Assembly (NCBI GenBank): GCA_000092065.1
Contig: CP000585.1
Origin: Ostreococcus lucimarinus
Lineage: Eukaryota
Length of the DNA: 64,000 bases
Reading direction: 5' to 3' (one strand)
A program made the position numbers and the translations under genes. Positions 50,199 to 56,539 of this stretch are shown piece after piece; the first letter of the stretch is position 1, and each line of letters starts with the position of its first letter. Below the pieces are notes generated by a model that searched no databases, was not told where the DNA came from, and worked only from the letters and a program-made list of their open reading frames with translations.

Positions 50199-52058
50199 TT
50201 ACGCGCAGGCGGATGAATCCGCCGTGACGGTGTCGAACGCGGCTTCGTCGTCTTGCGCAGCTAATCGTTCCAGCGCTTCGATCGCGCTCGTACCGAAACC
50301 TTTCGGTTCACGGCTGGAGACGGAATCAACCACGAAGTCAAGCGTCACGATAGCCACTGCCGGTGTCGGCAAGCGCTTCGCGAACGGAACGTAAACGTCG
50401 GCGTACGGCGCTCGATGCGCGGACTTGTTGGGAGCCATATCGACGACGACGACGACGGGAGAGTTCCTCGGGGACGAGGGCGACAATGAATCGCCGATGT
50501 CTTCGATTCGCGTCACCACGGCGCCATCGGCTCGAGCGAATTGCATGTTCATCTCGAGCTGATTCGAGTCGCGAAATTTGCCGAGATAGACGAAGTGCCA
50601 GGTCGAGAAAACTTTTGCGCCACCGTTCTCTCGCGCTCGTTTCGGTCCACCGAGATTTCCGCACGAGTCGCCTTGGATCTCGAACGCATCTTCATCCACG
50701 CAGCGTTGCTGTTCCAAACACGATTTCACCCACGCGCTGCTCAAGATCCAGCACCCTTGGATGAGCGCTTCGTAAAATTTGGCGCTCTTCTTTCGTAAAA
50801 CCATGCTTCCGGAATCAACCTTGCCTTTGCCGAAGACGACGTGCGTCGTTTGAGGCGAAAACATCGACTCATAGACGAAGTCAAACTGCTTGCAGAACTT
50901 TTCCAATTCCTTCTTTTCGGCGTCAGACAAGAGAGAGCCGCACACGCGAGTCTCGCGCGTCGTCTTGAGAAGTTCGTAGCTGGAATCCGAAGGATCGATG
51001 GAAACGAGCGACTTTTGACGCTTTGTCGCAGACTTGCCGTTCGTCGGCGCTTGTGCGCGCTTCAAACTGGGCGCTCTCGTAGCCGGTCGCTGCGCGGGCA
51101 GAAGCGCGAGAGGAAGAGTCGAGTGCGCCGGGCACGAAATTGAAAAGTGCTCGCCGTCGTACGTCGTTCCCTGAACCAGTCGCGCGCACCAAATATGATA
51201 CGATTTCTTGCATCTCGATTCGCTGCACCCCGACGGAGCACCCACTTTCTTGCAGTAGGCACACTTCAGACTTTTCGCTCTCCGGACCTCCGCGCAAACG
51301 TTCGTCAAGCCTCCGTCGACTGAGCTCACGACGAGCGGCGCCCAAAGCGCGCACGTCGTGTGACAGTGTTCCACGACCGTTTTCCTCGAAATCTTCTCCT
51401 CGAAACGTTCGACGCTTTCCCCAACCTCGCTCCCACGCTTGCAAAACGCGCACGGATGGCGACCCTGGACGGCAGCGTTCGGATCGATCACCGCTCCCGT
51501 CCACGGCGCGCGCGTCTCCCTCTCCACCGTCTCCTCCGTCGCCGTCGACGCTTCTTCTAATTCCCCCACCAACTCCTCAAACGCCCCGTTCCCACGTCGC
51601 CCACCTCCGTTTTCATCTCCAAACGCATGCGGTAGCGTTGGAAGCTTTCGCATGTTCGCCATGATCTCCTTCAACTGCGACACGCTCGTTCTTCGCTGCG
51701 GCGCTCGCGCGTTGTGCTTCCTCAGCTGCGTCGCCGGAATCTGTGACCCATACGGCACTTCCGTCTCCATCACCGACGCCACCGCCGCCAAAACGTTCGT
51801 ATACGCGCTCACAATCTTCTCAAACCGCTCATCCTTCCGCGACTCTCGCTTCGTGCACGGCGCTCTGCACGTCGGGCACGGCTGTTTCCTATCGAACAAC
51901 GTCTTCGCGCACGCCGCGCAAAAATAATGCGAGCACGCCAGCTTCGTCGGCTTTTTCGGCAGGCTCAGGCACACCGCGCAGCACAAGTGTTGTCCGAGCG
52001 CGTCCAGCGACGTCGTCAGCGTCGTTTTCGCCGTCTCCAGGCACGCGTCCAGCGTCAT
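50199..52058 (-). CDS. BRCA1/BARD1-like protein: N-terminal RING finger, extended PHD-like zinc finger, tandem C-terminal BRCT domains
   Basis: C3HC4 RING CAVCLSLPKKPTKLACSHYFCAACAKTLFDRKQPCPTCRAPC; ePHD-like CAFCKRG...HCHTTCALWAP...CAYCKKVGAPSGCSESRCKKSYHIWCA; BRCT blocks (FYEALIQGCWILSSAWVKSC..., VFSTWHFVYLGKF). This RING+PHD+2xBRCT architecture is the one known for plant BRCA1/BARD1. Confidence 0.7.
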   Translation of the reverse strand: MTLDACLETAKTTLTTSLDALGQHLCCAVCLSLPKKPTKLACSHYFCAACAKTLFDRKQPCPTCRAPCTKRESRKDERFEKIVSAYTNVLAAVASVMETEVPYGSQIPATQLRKHNARAPQRRTSVSQLKEIMANMRKLPTLPHAFGDENGGGRRGNGAFEELVGELEEASTATEETVERETRAPWTGAVIDPNAAVQGRHPCAFCKRGSEVGESVERFEEKISRKTVVEHCHTTCALWAPLVVSSVDGGLTNVCAEVRRAKSLKCAYCKKVGAPSGCSESRCKKSYHIWCARLVQGTTYDGEHFSISCPAHSTLPLALLPAQRPATRAPSLKRAQAPTNGKSATKRQKSLVSIDPSDSSYELLKTTRETRVCGSLLSDAEKKELEKFCKQFDFVYESMFSPQTTHVVFGKGKVDSGSMVLRKKSAKFYEALIQGCWILSSAWVKSCLEQQRCVDEDAFEIQGDSCGNLGGPKRARENGGAKVFSTWHFVYLGKFRDSNQLEMNMQFARADGAVVTRIEDIGDSLSPSSPRNSPVVVVVDMAPNKSAHRAPYADVYVPFAKRLPTPAVAIVTLDFVVDSVSSREPKGFGTSAIEALERLAAQDDEAAFDTVTADSSACA

Positions 52059-52333: not shown

Positions 52334-52919
52334 GATGATGATGATGGTGAGGACGACGACGACGAGGACGACGACGACGACGACGACGCGCGCGAACGCG
52401 CGCGCGACGAAGCGACGAACGACGCGCGTCGCGACGCGCGCGCGCGCGAACGGCGAACGAGGAACGTCGGCGTCGGCGGCGTCGACGTCGCGGGACGACG
52501 GGCGTAACCGTATCGGGGAAATCGTCGCGACGACGGCGAGCGCTTTGGCGCTCGCGATGGGCGCGCCGGACGCGCGGGCGATCGACATGCAAATAGTGGA
52601 TTCGACGACGTCCGAGTACATGCGACGACGGGACGAGGCGGCGAGTTTTAAGTGCTCGGGCGGGATGTTCGATTGCGATTCGGATAGACGAGAGTACGCG
52701 CGCGCGCAGACGGAGCGCCTGCGAGCGAGAATCGCGACGAGGGATCCGGAGATGGACGCCGAGGAGGTTTCGCCGTGCACGGTGGAGGATCCGTGCACGG
52801 ATAACGTGCTGCAGGCGGCGTTGGCGGGGGTGCAAGGCTTGACGACGAGCGAAAAATTGGAAAAGATGGGACGACCGACGGACGCGGTGAATTCGTCGAG
52901 TCAGTATTTCGGTTTTTGA
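52334..52919 (+). CDS. Small protein with bipartite-looking presequence (Thr/Arg-rich then hydrophobic ASALALAMG-APDARA), possible thylakoid-lumen protein; hypothetical
   Basis: ORF 51927..52919; ATG 52334 (MMMMVRTTTT) follows the GATCG promoter tract; no catalytic motif recognised. Confidence 0.3.
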
Positions 52920-52956: not shown

Positions 52957-55203
52957 CTATGCTTCTATTAGGTGCGTGGCTTCGTCGACCGCGCTGTCTT
53001 CCTCGCGCAGCTCGCCCCAAGACGTGCCGACGGCGAGTTTGATTGGCGTCGGCACGGCGAGTTTGATCGCGTTCTCCATGACGTTCTTCACCGCTCGCGC
53101 GCACTCTGGGACGTAGTCTTCGTCGACTTCGAACAAAAGTTCGTCGTGGATCTGTGCGACGAGAGTGACGCGCTTTTTATTCACTGATCCCGGCGCGACG
53201 TCGTTTGCAAATCTTCCCGCGCCGACGGCGCTCGTCCATCGCAGCATCGCCGTCTTCATCATGTCCGCGGCTGTTCCTTGAATGATCGTATTCACAGCTT
53301 GCCTTTGCGCCTCGCTGCGTTCGCTGAAGACTTTGGAGTGGATTTTCGGCAACGCGCGATGTCGACCGGACATCGGAAGCGTCACCGCTCCGGTTTGTTC
53401 CGCGCGTTGCAACACGCGAGTTATCCATTGATTCACCTTTGGAAACGCTCGATGAAACGCGGCGATGTATCCCTGCGCCTCGCTCTTCGGTACGCCGAGT
53501 TTTTCGGCCAAACCCGTGGCGTGTTGGCCGTACACGATTCCGTACGCCGTGCGCTTGGCGATGTCACGCGTGCTCTTTTCCGCTGGCGCGTCGAGCGGTA
53601 AGCCTTTACCGGCGTTCCAAATCGCCACGAACACGTCGCCTTTCGCCTGTCGTAACAGCGATATGAGGCGATCATCGCCGCTCAAGTGTGCCAAAACTCG
53701 CAGTTCAATTTGACTGTAATCCGCCGCGATGAATGTGCGCCCGGTGGGTGCGACGAAGCAGTTTCGCATCGTTCCCCGACCTACTTGCTGAATGTTAGGA
53801 TGACTCGAGGACAATCTCCCGGTCGCCGTCTTTGTGTTGTTCCATTGCGTGTGAATTCTGGCGCGACCGTCGGCGGCGATGACGGCTGATTTGTCGTAAT
53901 TGTCGCACATCGCTCTTTCTTTCAACGCGCCTCGATGATTCAACACGATTTGTGCGAAATGATGATGCTTCACTAGCGACTGCAGGACTTCGACACTCGT
54001 CGATAAATGGCTCGACTTGGAACCTTTCATCGCGTGCGCGCTCGGCGTCGGTAGCTTGAGCTTGTTATACAAGACGTCGGCGACTTGCTGCGCGCTCGCC
54101 AAATTGATGTCGACTCCGATGCACTTTTGGGCCTCGCGCTCAAGCTCTTCGACGCGACGATTCGCGGCCCGTCTCTGCTCGTCCGCGCGCGTCCGATCGA
54201 ACCCAACACCGTGGTGTTGAAGCACGCCGAGAGCGACTGCGACTTTGGCTTCGACGTCTCGCGCGAGCGGGGCGTCGCCTCGAGGGACGAACGAAAGCGC
54301 CGCGGTCAAGTCGGATTGAAAACACCCGAGCGCGTCGCTCCATGATGCATCTTTACACGCGCCCGTGTCCGCGATGCCCCCATCGTAGGCGCGATCGGGA
54401 TTGGCCAACCACGCGTCGATGCGACAATCGACGACGCGCGTCGTCGACGCGTCCACGCCAGTCACGCCCGCGTCCATCGCCGCGTGAACGATGTCTTGCG
54501 CGTGATACGTCACAACTCGACACTTCGCAAAAATCTTTTCTAAACGCGCTCTCGTCGTCGCGCGGTTCGCGGCGCGCAAAAAAAACGCCTCTCCCGTCGA
54601 CGCCATCACCGCGCCGAAACCGAGCACCGCTCGATCGACGGCGGACGCGTCGTCGTCGTCGCCATCGTCAGCATCACCACCGACCGCCGAAAGAGTCGCG
54701 AAGCGTTTCGCCGCCTTTTTCGCCGCCTTCTTTTCGTTCGCATCGACGTCACGAAAATTCGAACTGTACCCGAACCAAATCTCCAAGTCTCCCGCCACGC
54801 GCGCGACGTCTCTTCGCAGCACGCCGAGCGCGCACGTCGCGTCCTCGCCGCCATCCTCCAACGCTCGATCGAACGCCTCTCCGCTGTGGTCCGCATCGCA
54901 CCACGCCGCATTTTTCTCGAAATCAATCCCCTCCATCGCGTCTCCTCGTCCGGTCTCGAACGCCAACGCCATCGCCTCCGCCTCCGCGCTCGGTTTCGCC
55001 TTCGCCTTCGCCTTCGCCTTCGCCTTCGCGCGTCGCTTCTCGCCGCCGCCGCGCGTCGTCGTCGTCGTCGTCGTCGCCGGGCGTTTCCGCGTCGCCGACG
55101 CGTCGGCGTCGACGAACACCGGCGCGACGGTCGTCGTCGTCGTCGTTTCCGTCGCGTCGCCGGGCGGCGGTTTGGTTTTCCATCGCCATCGAAACGTCGC
55201 CAT
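52957..55203 (-). CDS. Family A DNA polymerase, Pol theta/Pol nu-like polymerase domain with degenerate N-terminal exonuclease-like region, no helicase domain
   Basis: Motif A DYSQIELRVLAHLS, motif B RDIAKRTAYGIVYG, QAVNTIIQGTAADMMK, motif C VAQIHDELLFEV, GTSWGELRE - blocks that closely track the POLQ polymerase domain; N-terminal Lys/Ala and poly-Thr low complexity. Confidence 0.8.
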   Translation of the reverse strand: MATFRWRWKTKPPPGDATETTTTTTVAPVFVDADASATRKRPATTTTTTTRGGGEKRRAKAKAKAKAKAKPSAEAEAMALAFETGRGDAMEGIDFEKNAAWCDADHSGEAFDRALEDGGEDATCALGVLRRDVARVAGDLEIWFGYSSNFRDVDANEKKAAKKAAKRFATLSAVGGDADDGDDDDASAVDRAVLGFGAVMASTGEAFFLRAANRATTRARLEKIFAKCRVVTYHAQDIVHAAMDAGVTGVDASTTRVVDCRIDAWLANPDRAYDGGIADTGACKDASWSDALGCFQSDLTAALSFVPRGDAPLARDVEAKVAVALGVLQHHGVGFDRTRADEQRRAANRRVEELEREAQKCIGVDINLASAQQVADVLYNKLKLPTPSAHAMKGSKSSHLSTSVEVLQSLVKHHHFAQIVLNHRGALKERAMCDNYDKSAVIAADGRARIHTQWNNTKTATGRLSSSHPNIQQVGRGTMRNCFVAPTGRTFIAADYSQIELRVLAHLSGDDRLISLLRQAKGDVFVAIWNAGKGLPLDAPAEKSTRDIAKRTAYGIVYGQHATGLAEKLGVPKSEAQGYIAAFHRAFPKVNQWITRVLQRAEQTGAVTLPMSGRHRALPKIHSKVFSERSEAQRQAVNTIIQGTAADMMKTAMLRWTSAVGAGRFANDVAPGSVNKKRVTLVAQIHDELLFEVDEDYVPECARAVKNVMENAIKLAVPTPIKLAVGTSWGELREEDSAVDEATHLIEA

Positions 55204-55468
55204 CGCGCGCCGTCGCGTCGCGCGCGCCGCTCGCGCGTCGCGACGCCGCGAGAACTACGCGCGATGCGCCTCGCGCGCGCGCGTGACGGCGTCGGCGCGC
55301 GATGGCGTCGCGTCGCGTCGTCGCATCGTCGTCGCGAAGTGCGGTGACGCGCGCGTCACATCGAAGCGACGCGCGCGTTCGCCGCGCGACGCTTCGACGG
55401 ACGCGACGGACGCGCGCGCGCGCGTCTTCAGCGCGCGCGTCGTCGTCGCGTGCGCGATCGCGATCGCG

Positions 55469-56539
55469 ATGGCGTCCGGACGCGCCGGGACGCCGGCGGC
55501 GACGCTCGGGACGCTGCGCGCGCACGACGCGAAGCGCGCGCTCGCGGTGGATCGGTTGATCCTGGGGGCGTCGCCGCTGGCGGGAATATACCGCGGCGTC
55601 GACGCGAGCGAGGCCGCGGCGACGGTGCGCGCGGCGCTCGACGTCGGGTTCACGCGGTTCGACACGGCGCCGCACTACGGGTTGGGGCTGAGCGAGACGC
55701 GCCTGGGCGAGGCGCTGCGAACGCACGCGAAGAAGGCGGTGAAGGTGTACACCAAGGTGGGAAGGGTGATGAAACCGATGGATGAAGTGACGGAAAGCGA
55801 ACGCGAGTCGGTGGTCGAGTGGGGGAACGTGCCGGGAAACGACGGGTGCATATTTCCAGACGCCCCGCGAGACGTGTTGCCCGTGCTCGATTATTCCGCG
55901 AATGGGTTCGTGCGATCGCACGCCGATAGTTTAAACAGGCTTGGGATTGATAGAATAGAGGGATTGAGGATTCACGACGCCGAGACGCCCGAAAGGTTCG
56001 AGGCGGCGACGACCGGGGGCGGCGTGCGCGCGTTGACGGCGCTTCGCGACGCGGGAACCATTTCAGAGGTATCGCTCGGGATGAACGACGCCTCGTACGT
56101 GTTGCGAATGATTCGCGAGAATCCCCCAGGAACGTTCGACTCGGTCATGATGGCCGGTTCGTGGAACTTGCTCGATCAAGACGGTCTCGAAGTCTTGCTC
56201 GAGTGCCAAGCGCGAAACATCAAGGTGCACAACGCCGGCGTCTTCGCCAGCGGCGTCCTCGTCGGCGGTTCGCACTACAAGTACGGCCCCGCTCCCGACG
56301 AGATCAAGCGGCGCACCGAAAAGTGGAACGTCTTGGCGCGCGCGTACGACATCCCTCTCCCCGCCATCGCCCTCGCCTTCGCCCTCACTCCCGAAGTCGT
56401 CGACTCGTGCGCCGTCGGCGTCAAGTCCCCCGACGAGGTCGCCCAATCCGTCGCCTGGCTCGCCGACGCCGCCCGCGTCCCGCGCCAGCTTTGGCTCGAC
56501 GCGTTTTCTCAAGGTTTACTCGCGTGGATCCCGTCCTAG
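55469..56539 (+). CDS. Aldo/keto reductase (L-galactose dehydrogenase / D-threo-aldose dehydrogenase-like)
   Basis: AKR fold motifs LILGASPLAGIY, FDTAPHYG, catalytic Tyr/Lys positions, C-terminal IPLPAIALAF; ORF extends to 55172 but ATG 55469 follows the CGATCG promoter tract. Confidence 0.7.
   Translation: MASGRAGTPAATLGTLRAHDAKRALAVDRLILGASPLAGIYRGVDASEAAATVRAALDVGFTRFDTAPHYGLGLSETRLGEALRTHAKKAVKVYTKVGRVMKPMDEVTESERESVVEWGNVPGNDGCIFPDAPRDVLPVLDYSANGFVRSHADSLNRLGIDRIEGLRIHDAETPERFEAATTGGGVRALTALRDAGTISEVSLGMNDASYVLRMIRENPPGTFDSVMMAGSWNLLDQDGLEVLLECQARNIKVHNAGVFASGVLVGGSHYKYGPAPDEIKRRTEKWNVLARAYDIPLPAIALAFALTPEVVDSCAVGVKSPDEVAQSVAWLADAARVPRQLWLDAFSQGLLAWIPS

Follow-up and report, generated by a model that had tools for sequence, protein, structure and literature searches.

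A Pol theta/nu-lineage DNA polymerase without a helicase domain in the green alga Ostreococcus lucimarinus

The window analyzed here, a stretch of 64,000 nucleotides (nt) from contig CP000585.1 of Ostreococcus lucimarinus (GenBank assembly GCA_000092065.1), contains a gene for a family A DNA polymerase of 748 amino acids (aa) that has no helicase domain. This protein is likely a catalytically competent, proofreading-deficient polymerase of the Pol theta/nu (Mus308) lineage that belongs to a helicase-less clade of green algae and most likely coexists with both the organellar polymerase POP and a canonical POLQ. The gene and the parts of its product are as follows.

52957..55203, minus strand: open reading frame (ORF) of the helicase-less family A DNA polymerase, stop codon included; ATG start, 748 aa, from the ORF list.
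54994..55203, minus strand: disordered tail, aa 1-70, rich in Thr, Ala, Arg, and Lys; predicted local distance difference test (pLDDT) below 50 for aa 1-67 in the AlphaFold2 model.
55180-55194, minus strand: conserved FRWRW motif in the tail, corresponding to RWR[FWY] at ortholog N-termini.
54994-55029, minus strand: (AK)6 repeat in the tail, encoded by (GCGAAG)n.
54928..54993, minus strand: conserved short helix and motif, aa 71-92, KPSxxAEAxALAFExGRGxAxEG in the family alignment; AlphaFold2 helix at aa 73-81.
54274..54906, minus strand: pseudo-exonuclease domain, aa ~100-310; DnaQ/Klenow-exo-like fold kept, catalytic DEDD motifs not conserved.
54487-54510, minus strand: ExoII remnant, TYHAQDIV.
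54394-54432, minus strand: VDCRIDAWLANPD block in the pseudo-exonuclease domain, matching the FDTMLAAYLL-type block of Pol I.
52999..54267, minus strand: polymerase domain (thumb, fingers, and palm), aa 313-735, from PF00476 and PDB alignments to POLN, Klenow, Taq, and POLQ.
53680..53721, minus strand: motif A, DYSQIELRVLAHLS, aa 495-508, with catalytic Asp495 and steric-gate Glu500.
53527..53568, minus strand: motif B (O-helix), RDIAKRTAYGIVYG, aa 546-559, R-x-x-Y (R551, Y554).
53125..53154, minus strand: motif C, QIHDELLFEV, aa 684-693, with catalytic Asp687 and Glu688.

The only Pfam domain in the protein is PF00476 (DNA_pol_A; aa 340-731, E 5.2e-104, 348.7 bits; cut-off 34.3 bits). The Pfam scan of the 748 aa gave no match to a helicase, to the 3'-5' exonuclease PF01612, or to the 5'-3' exonuclease domains PF02739 and PF01367. 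DEAD, Helicase_C, HTH_61, and POLQ_helical, which true POLQ proteins show when scanned in the same way, are all missing from it. Furthermore, a six-frame scan of the whole 64-kb window found no ORF with Walker A, DExH, and helicase motif VI together. The absence of a superfamily 2 (SF2) helicase from the ORF, as proposed in the initial annotation made from the sequence alone, is thus borne out.

The gene is annotated in public records but uncharacterized. A cluster of sequences 100% identical to the polymerase includes XP_001417901.1/ABO96194.1 ("predicted protein [Ostreococcus lucimarinus CCE9901]", 671 aa). The ortholog in O. tauri is XP_003079129.2/CEF97820.1 ("DNA polymerase A", 743 aa), and that in O. 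tauri strain RCC1115 is OUS48177.1. About 10 more ortholog clusters come from marine metagenomes at 54-65% identity, with a remoter set at 36-43%; all the orthologs have PF00476 alone and are 743-987 aa long. Orthologs were found in all Mamiellales-type lineages sampled, and the gene is a real, conserved, stand-alone, and intronless unit. A pseudogene or inactive relic was ruled out, as the ORF is intact in at least 10 lineages and the catalytic residues are invariant.

The active site of the polymerase is intact, with all catalytic residues present. D495, E500, R546, K550, Y554, H686, D687, and E688 are invariant in the 14 ortholog sequences that make up the family alignment (A1). The motifs had been described as following POLQ block for block. 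All three are present, but motif A is identical to that of Taq Pol I and motif C (AQIHDELLFEV) to that of human POLN, and just the O-helix Tyr is of Pol theta/nu type. The O-helix has R-x-x-Y where Pol I has (A/T)-x-x-F, the Pol theta/nu-type signature by a published criterion (PMC5472330), and places Tyr at the Klenow F762 position. This Tyr at K+4 is found in 20 of 20 Mamiellales-type sequences, in all 19 helicase-bearing POLQ sequences, and in POLN. Among 150 bacterial Pol I sequences, the commonest pairs are A..F (55), I..Y (21), T..F (19), and M..Y (14). The O. lucimarinus O-helix reads K-R-T-A-Y, and the clade has R..Y in 12, T..Y in seven, and A..Y in one of the 20 sequences, such that the Tyr is universal within the clade and the basic residue is not. 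In addition, an insertion of ~11 aa precedes motif C at the position of POLQ insert 3.

Upstream of the polymerase domain, the region of aa ~100-310 is a catalytically degenerate pseudo-exonuclease, because it has no conserved D-x-E and the family reads TYHAQ[D/V/E]xV instead of NxxYD at the ExoII position. Neither D-x-E nor the ExoII Asp is conserved anywhere in the 14-sequence family alignment. The AlphaFold2 model (mean pLDDT 77.5, predicted template modeling score 0.78) has a Klenow-like two-domain fold, in which aa 101-303 form strands and helices with pLDDT mostly 80-93. In a Foldseek comparison with the PDB, this model ranked POLN first (E 5e-37), followed by POLQ, Bst, and then Taq and Mycobacterium smegmatis Pol I; the alignments to POLN and POLQ chains span more than 700 columns and include their exo-like domains. 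The PF18049 model ("Pol nu pseudo-exo") scores 13.9 bits (E 0.04), short of its cut-off of 27, but the family profile aligns to POLN residues 109-230. The hhalign probability for the N-terminal domain is 90% with the POLQ exo-like region, 97.9% with the equivalent region of other green algal proteins, and 16% with bacterial proofreading domains. The last alignment puts ExoI on a disordered acidic loop and was not used for residue-level claims. Taken together with the missing PF01612 match, the retained fold and the lost acidic motifs agree with the degenerate exonuclease-like region suggested earlier.

For the placement of the polymerase within family A, pairwise scores were dropped as a classifier. 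In pairwise comparison, the polymerase reaches 223 bits with POLN, 207 bits with Klenow, and 197 bits with POLQ, but human POLN itself is as close to Taq (229 bits) as to POLQ (222 bits), and profiles and trees were used instead. Against the PDB, the family profile scores 347 bits to POLN, 305 to Klenow, and 304 to POLQ. Its alignments reach the pseudo-exonuclease domains of POLN and POLQ, whereas Klenow and Taq align from the polymerase domain only. A word-indexed homolog search listed only Mamiellales-type orthologs and then bacterial Pol I, an order due to the candidate filter and the database composition. An exhaustive profile search over 1.84 billion representatives brought out the eukaryotic relatives. 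Next after the Mamiellales-type sequences were helicase-less green algal proteins at 366-434 bits (Botryococcus, Mesostigma, Pedinophyceae, Chlamydomonas incerta, Gonium, and Pleodorina). The search also returned helicase-bearing POLQ proteins (Priapulus, chytrids, Pharyngomonas, Arachis TEBICHI, and sponges), an eel POLN-like protein, and bacterial Pol I. When hidden Markov models (HMMs) of groups were compared, the polymerase domain scored 399 bits with the green helicase-less group, 397 with helicase-bearing POLQ, and 355 with bacterial Pol I.

Trees of polymerase domains were built by bootstrapped neighbor joining (NJ) with Kimura correction from MAFFT alignments trimmed to ~400 columns. 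In the first tree (265 domains), 20 Mamiellales-type sequences, 19 helicase-bearing POLQ sequences, human POLN, and 50 unlabeled sequences were separated from 150 bacterial Pol I sequences with a 5'-exonuclease and others in 99 of 100 bootstraps. The second tree (194 sequences) added full-length POLQ sequences from plants, streptophyte algae, Tetradesmus, insects, fish, and metagenomes, and recovered the split between Pol theta/nu-type sequences and bacterial Pol I in all 200 bootstraps. In this tree, all 52 helicase-bearing sequences form one group (48%), and the polymerase lies outside it. In the NJ trees, the polymerase clusters weakly (52-62%) with the green helicase-less proteins, Micromonas-like ones included, and the position of POLN has 0-17% support. 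As judged from these sequence comparisons, the polymerase belongs to the Pol theta/nu (Mus308) lineage and not to bacterial Pol I, which upholds the lineage named in the initial annotation. Consistent with this placement, it has neither the combination of 5'-3' and 3'-5' exonucleases nor the position in the bacterial clade that define bacterial Pol I, and NCBIfam equivalog models of Pol I match its polymerase part only, far under their cut-offs (342 vs 720 bits). The Pol theta/nu side of the NJ tree also holds basal, helicase-less-looking unlabeled proteins (P0152, P0153, P0170, P0189, P0190, P0194, P0195, and P0222). Ten unlabeled sequences have Leu at the Phe/Tyr position of the O-helix (T..L or V..L), and these may be the basal-group proteins.

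The green algal relatives comprise C. incerta KAG2429354.1, Gonium KXZ47865.1, Pleodorina GLC33311.1, Botryococcus Bobra.40_1s0077, Pedinophyceae CAG9467231.1, and Mesostigma Mv10094. PF00476 is the only domain in the Pfam-scanned relatives from Botryococcus, Mesostigma, Pedinophyceae, C. incerta, and Pleodorina, and a local phmmer probe gave no helicase match in the Gonium relative. All are uncharacterized "hypothetical proteins" with a related N-terminal domain. Most, at 1,240-1,876 aa, are longer than the O. lucimarinus polymerase and have N-terminal extensions of low complexity or gene models that are fused. Another helicase-less Pol theta-like protein of a unicellular eukaryote is the Pol theta of Leishmania infantum (LinJ.24.0910), which has 1,171 aa and a POLQ-type insert between motifs 1 and 2, is an active polymerase in biochemical assays, can read past 8-oxoG, abasic sites, and thymine glycol, and performs strand displacement (PMC4889957). 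By its published description, this enzyme is the best experimental precedent for the algal protein, an analogy at the level of the helicase-less Pol theta-like domain. The notion that a polymerase-only arrangement is uncommon outside animals does not hold up, given the orthologs across Mamiellales-type lineages, the helicase-less kin in Chlorophyceae, Trebouxiophyceae, Pedinophyceae, and Mesostigma, and the Leishmania precedent.

The N-terminal tail of the polymerase includes the basic clusters RKRP and EKRR in addition to the motifs listed above. Two internal Met codons, M78 (nt 54970-54972) and M90 (nt 54934-54936), lie within the conserved aa 71-92 motif. M78 is the start of the public model XP_001417901.1 and M90 that of the metagenome gene calls, with cluster member lengths of 671 and 659 aa, respectively. 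Orthologs of different lineages, the 743-aa O. tauri protein among them, share RWR[FWY] immediately behind an upstream Met, and the true start is therefore probably M1; the public and metagenome models would then be truncated, the public one by 77 aa. It is possible that the tail is a nuclear localization or partner-binding element. Four contigs of ~2 kb that carry the identical gene (L001-L004) were considered as transcripts that might define the 5' end, but they were ruled out as genomic fragments broken at the (GCGAAG)n repeat, which causes breaks at 54950-54975 in these four metagenome/Logan assemblies, all independent of one another. A Nextera transposase adapter stands at the start of L001. 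Toward their 3' ends, L001 and L002 part from the window sequence within the neighboring convergent gene (at 52769) and continue as a CTCTTCAACG-type repeat variant.

Upstream exons encoding a helicase had been raised as an alternative, together with a promoter shared between the polymerase and an aldo/keto reductase (AKR) gene. The AKR gene is the next gene upstream (ATG at 55469, plus strand; PF00248, E 5.7e-32), and the intervening spacer is as follows.

55204..55468, no strand: divergent spacer between the polymerase and AKR genes, 265 nt, with CGATCG at 55455 and 55461.

This spacer is presumed to be a bidirectional promoter, and the two CGATCG copies in it match the earlier description. 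The same divergent AKR-polymerase pair is found with a 197-nt spacer on a 408-kb Tara Oceans contig (L005), where the gene order also matches that of the window (GPN-loop GTPase, AKR, polymerase, small convergent gene, RING/PHD gene, and Got1). Upstream helicase exons are not plausible, because a TAG lies in frame 17 codons upstream of the polymerase ATG (55255-55257), the divergent AKR gene is 265 nt away, the pair is arranged alike in L005, and RWR[FWY] is conserved at the N-terminus. Within the 64-kb window, the CGATCG palindrome occurs 118 times, compared with ~21 expected by base composition. The copies at 55455 and 55461 sit directly upstream of the AKR start codon. The abundance of this palindrome looks like a genome-wide feature that is not particular to the polymerase/AKR promoter.

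A second question is whether these algae also have a full-length POLQ. A metagenome collection was scanned with an alignment of POLQ helicase domains (A2), and the ORFs were then analyzed. Many marine contigs have a single uninterrupted ORF for a helicase and polymerase POLQ of 1,702-1,850 aa, with lengths in the high-GC class extending to 2,296 aa (L024). The contigs have GC contents of 0.46-0.48 (L032-L050), 0.55-0.58 (L012-L020, L023, L025, and L029-31), or 0.64-0.72 (L024, L046, L052-54, L077, and L079). The full-length marine proteins P0399-P0406 have DEAD, Helicase_C, HTH_61, POLQ_helical, and DNA_pol_A, and the best named relatives of the marine POLQ proteins are streptophyte TEBICHI and Chlorokybus, at 35-38% identity. 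The third-position GC content (GC3) of the marine POLQ ORFs, 0.62-0.66, is like that of the genes in the window (0.65-0.75). An HSP70-like gene beside the POLQ of contig L087 is 56% identical to Micromonas pusilla, 40-46% to core chlorophytes, and 71-93% to an unnamed marine tier; such a gene is conserved directly downstream of POLQ in the Ostreococcus-like class. Shared sequencing runs gave no link between the marine POLQ ORFs and O. lucimarinus, as the runs differ. These marine ORFs are very probably the canonical POLQ of Ostreococcus-, Bathycoccus-, and Micromonas-type algae.

Published records point in the same direction. Takata et al. stated that "Ostreococcus contains POLQ" (PMC5472330), and Thomy et al. 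gave OUS43494.1 as the O. tauri "DNA polymerase theta" (PMC8002553), an accession that is not that of the helicase-less gene's ortholog, OUS48177.1. How Chlamydomonas POLQ1 and O. tauri OUS43494.1 are built from domains is not stated in the literature consulted. The core chlorophyte Tetradesmus obliquus has a fused helicase and polymerase POLQ of 1,713 aa. With identity of only 28-30% between the helicase-less polymerase and the polymerase domains in the marine full-length POLQ proteins, the former is read as an old paralog, not as a recent copy or one half of a split gene. It probably coexists with full-length POLQ as a second paralog and does not replace it.

Several comparisons define what the polymerase shares with POLN and POLQ and where it departs from them. 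Animal POLN (PDB 4XVI-4XVM) is likewise a single helicase-less polypeptide with a pseudo-exonuclease followed by a polymerase domain. It is about 900 aa long, compared with 748 aa here, and its N-terminal tail and tail motifs are unrelated. The two are also alike in the identical motif C, in the (K/R)xxY O-helix, and in POLN being the best PDB match by sequence, profile, and fold. Among the published characteristics of POLN, the six complete polymerase motifs with their catalytic residues and an O-helix of (K/R)xxY, not (A/T)xxF, are present in the polymerase, and the full set of three POLN inserts is not (PMC5472330). One insert was examined in detail: the ~20-aa insert after motif 2 (KHPIQITTPKNFKGKEDKILTIS) has no counterpart, and the O. 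lucimarinus polymerase reads PNIQQVGRG-TMRNCF there. The POLN-like arrangement suggested in the initial annotation is thus correct for the helicase-less, polymerase-only layout, whereas the missing insert speaks against orthology. POLN has been reported as confined to Metazoa (PMC5472330). With POLQ/Mus308/TEBICHI, the polymerase shares the lineage of its polymerase domain, the inactive exo-like domain, and the O-helix Tyr, and its identity to POLQ polymerase domains is 28-35% (34.5% to TEBICHI), compared with 34% to human POLN. It differs from them in having no SF2 helicase, POLQ_helical, HTH_61, or long central region. As to what defines POLQ, the Pol theta/nu lineage is present, but the helicase fusion and the full set of three inserts are absent; in the alignment to human POLQ constructs, neither insert 1 (thumb) nor insert 2 (after PNIQNVPR) was found, and the insert-3 position has just the ~11 aa before motif C.

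POP resembles the helicase-less polymerase in being a family A enzyme encoded in the same nuclear genome and in having no 5'-3' exonuclease. The two are set apart by accession and motifs, as the helicase-less polymerase has no PF01612 match or exonuclease catalytic motifs. The POP motifs DYGQLELR, AKMLNFS, and HDEVILE differ from those of the polymerase, which is a lead and not a test. POPs are organelle-targeted and have an active 3'-5' exonuclease domain (PMC6523293). Hirakawa and Watanabe listed POP as XP_001419587 in O. lucimarinus and XP_003081271 in O. tauri (PMC6523293 Table S1), and these accessions differ from those of the helicase-less polymerase in both species. By these accessions, the helicase-less polymerase is very probably not the organellar POP. 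Two novel green algal types, chloroPolA and pyramiPolA, have cyanobacterial or gammaproteobacterial Pol I affinity and are confined to Chlorophyceae and Pyramimonadales, respectively, and neither was found in Mamiellales (PMC10877234). In that study, Harada et al. screened EukProt3, including both Ostreococcus species, with PF00476 and discarded known types such as Pol theta (PMC10877234).

These comparisons bear on three other explanations. One is that the gene encodes the polymerase half of the only Pol theta of the alga, partnered by a separate POLQ/HELQ-type helicase. POLQ has been annotated as separate helicase-like and polymerase-like genes in some lineages (PMC5472330), Chlamydomonas "POLQ2" is helicase-only (PMC8604939), Auxenochlorella "POLQ1" is a 965-aa helicase-only protein, and three loci (L008, L009, and L061) have adjacent separate helicase and polymerase ORFs. 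Nevertheless, this explanation is unlikely considering the uninterrupted ORFs on contigs of Mamiellophyceae type, whose three GC classes correspond to Ostreococcus, Bathycoccus, and Micromonas, the 28-30% identity to those POLQ domains together with the position of the polymerase outside them in the tree, and the published O. tauri Pol theta accession that differs from the ortholog of the helicase-less gene. The suggestion that the helicase part is a separate gene accordingly finds no backing in these contigs, which show a complete helicase and polymerase POLQ ORF instead. Alternatively, the green helicase-less clade and animal POLN may descend from one pre-metazoan helicase-less gene, which would make the polymerase a true POLN ortholog. 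This hypothesis could account for the top rank of human POLN among PDB matches in sequence (223 bits), family profile (347 bits, with Klenow at 305), and fold, for the identical motif C and the POLN-type O-helix, and for the NJ placement of the POLN clade beside the helicase-less groups. However, that neighborhood has 0-17% bootstrap support, the ~20-aa insert after motif 2 that serves as a published membership criterion is missing (PMC5472330), and PF18049 stays under its threshold. Moreover, an HMM from animal POLN alone gives 264 bits for the polymerase domain, below the POLQ and bacterial HMMs, and human POLN scores alike to Taq/Klenow and POLQ, such that its high scores partly reflect slow evolution of both proteins. 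POLN orthology is therefore considered quite unlikely.

The remaining explanation is an organelle-targeted Pol I-like enzyme, which would be POP or a type of bacterial origin, for example chloroPolA or pyramiPolA. Algae hold many lineage-specific organellar family A polymerases (PMC10877234), the scores to bacterial Pol I nearly match those to POLQ, and the disordered N-terminal 70 aa are rich in Thr, Ala, and Arg, resembling a transit peptide. Yet POP is assigned to other accessions in both Ostreococcus species, the two bacterial-derived types are restricted to other groups, and the polymerase is not among the novel organellar types of Harada et al., although EukProt3 covers Ostreococcus. Furthermore, the split from bacterial Pol I has 99-100% bootstrap support, the functional 3'-5' exonuclease of POPs is missing, and a conserved RWR[FWY] at the extreme N-terminus would be unusual in a transit peptide. 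An organellar enzyme is thus very unlikely.

The favored explanation, a helicase-less Pol theta/nu-lineage polymerase that coexists with POP and canonical POLQ, also has several points that weigh against it. The full-length POLQ is known from marine contigs and not from the O. lucimarinus genome, and the Mamiellophyceae assignment of those contigs is based on composition and on the affinities of a neighboring gene. The composition of the N-terminal tail, with much Thr, Ala, and Arg and few acidic residues, is compatible with an organellar transit peptide. The four near-identical external contigs (L001-L004) are fragments of genomic DNA and not transcripts. The NJ trees are distance-based, and support inside the supergroup is weak (helicase-bearing group, 48%; green helicase-less group, 52-62%; POLN, 0-17%), such that the clade could be an ancient paralog, a POLN relative, or a fast-evolving POLQ derivative. 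The O-helix is a further point. In POLN, Lys679 at the O-helix K/R position is linked to low fidelity. The O. lucimarinus polymerase has Arg551 at this position, where POLN orthologs keep Lys or Arg (PMC5472330). As this Arg is replaced by Thr in seven of the 20 clade members, POLN-like fidelity properties are not generalizable to the clade.

Separate from these arguments, POLQ architecture varies among the core chlorophytes, with a fused gene in T. obliquus and helicase-only proteins in Auxenochlorella ("POLQ1") and Chlamydomonas ("POLQ2") (P0447 and P0451; PMC8604939), and gene names therefore do not mirror domain content. At four metagenomic loci (L007, L008, L009, and L061), POLQ helicase and polymerase are encoded in two adjacent same-strand ORFs 10-140 nt apart. 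For example, L008 (GC 0.43) has an 876-aa helicase ORF followed by a 753-aa polymerase ORF, and the GC content of L061 is 0.75. Such loci could represent an intron, a frameshift, or a truly split POLQ.

Downstream of the polymerase, a small gene of ~190 aa without a Pfam match (~52340-52919, plus strand) converges on it. Its product has a Thr-rich N-terminus, MMMMVRTTTTRTTTTTTTR. Its stop codon is 37 nt from that of the polymerase, and the 3' untranslated regions must therefore overlap. L005 has a 185-aa counterpart in the same place. Two genes downstream of the polymerase (50199-52058, minus strand) is a gene for a 619-aa protein with RING, PHD-like (zf-HC5HC2H), and BRCT domains, the layout of plant BRCA1/BARD1. 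The neighborhood of the polymerase and this RING/PHD gene is kept in L005, where a photolyase gene lies ~10 kb beyond. The BRCA1/BARD1-like neighbor was not used as functional evidence, since eukaryotic gene order is not operonic.

With regard to function, the helicase module may never have been present in the lineage of this polymerase, or may have been lost long ago. By analogy with known enzymes, the protein would act in the nucleus as a specialized, exonuclease-deficient repair polymerase. Candidate roles, suggested by POLN and Leishmania Pol theta, include lesion bypass, gap filling, and strand-displacement synthesis in recombination or crosslink repair, and microhomology-mediated end joining would be left to full-length POLQ. 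The basic disordered tail and the short motifs RWR[FWY] and AEAxALAFExGRG may serve localization or partner binding.

Microhomology-mediated end joining and, in plants and algae, random transgene integration have Pol theta as their key enzyme. Pol nu is regarded as an animal-only, germline-specialized sibling. It is conceivable, although rather doubtful, that an ancient helicase-less paralog of the Pol theta family has been kept beside canonical POLQ in green algae ranging from Mamiellales to Chlorophyceae and the early-branching streptophyte Mesostigma. If so, either a POLN-type enzyme would predate animals, against the view that it originated in the metazoan ancestor, or algae and animals would have independently evolved a POLQ with a helicase-less sibling, which land plants later lost. 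Taken alone, the polymerase gene is an uncharacterized member of a known lineage and of modest practical importance. If both genes are present, "POLQ" knock-outs in algae and homology-based inventories of repair genes, as used for genome editing in Ostreococcus and Chlamydomonas, must separate them, and the origin of helicase-less Pol theta-type enzymes would become testable in a haploid, intron-poor, and transformable organism.

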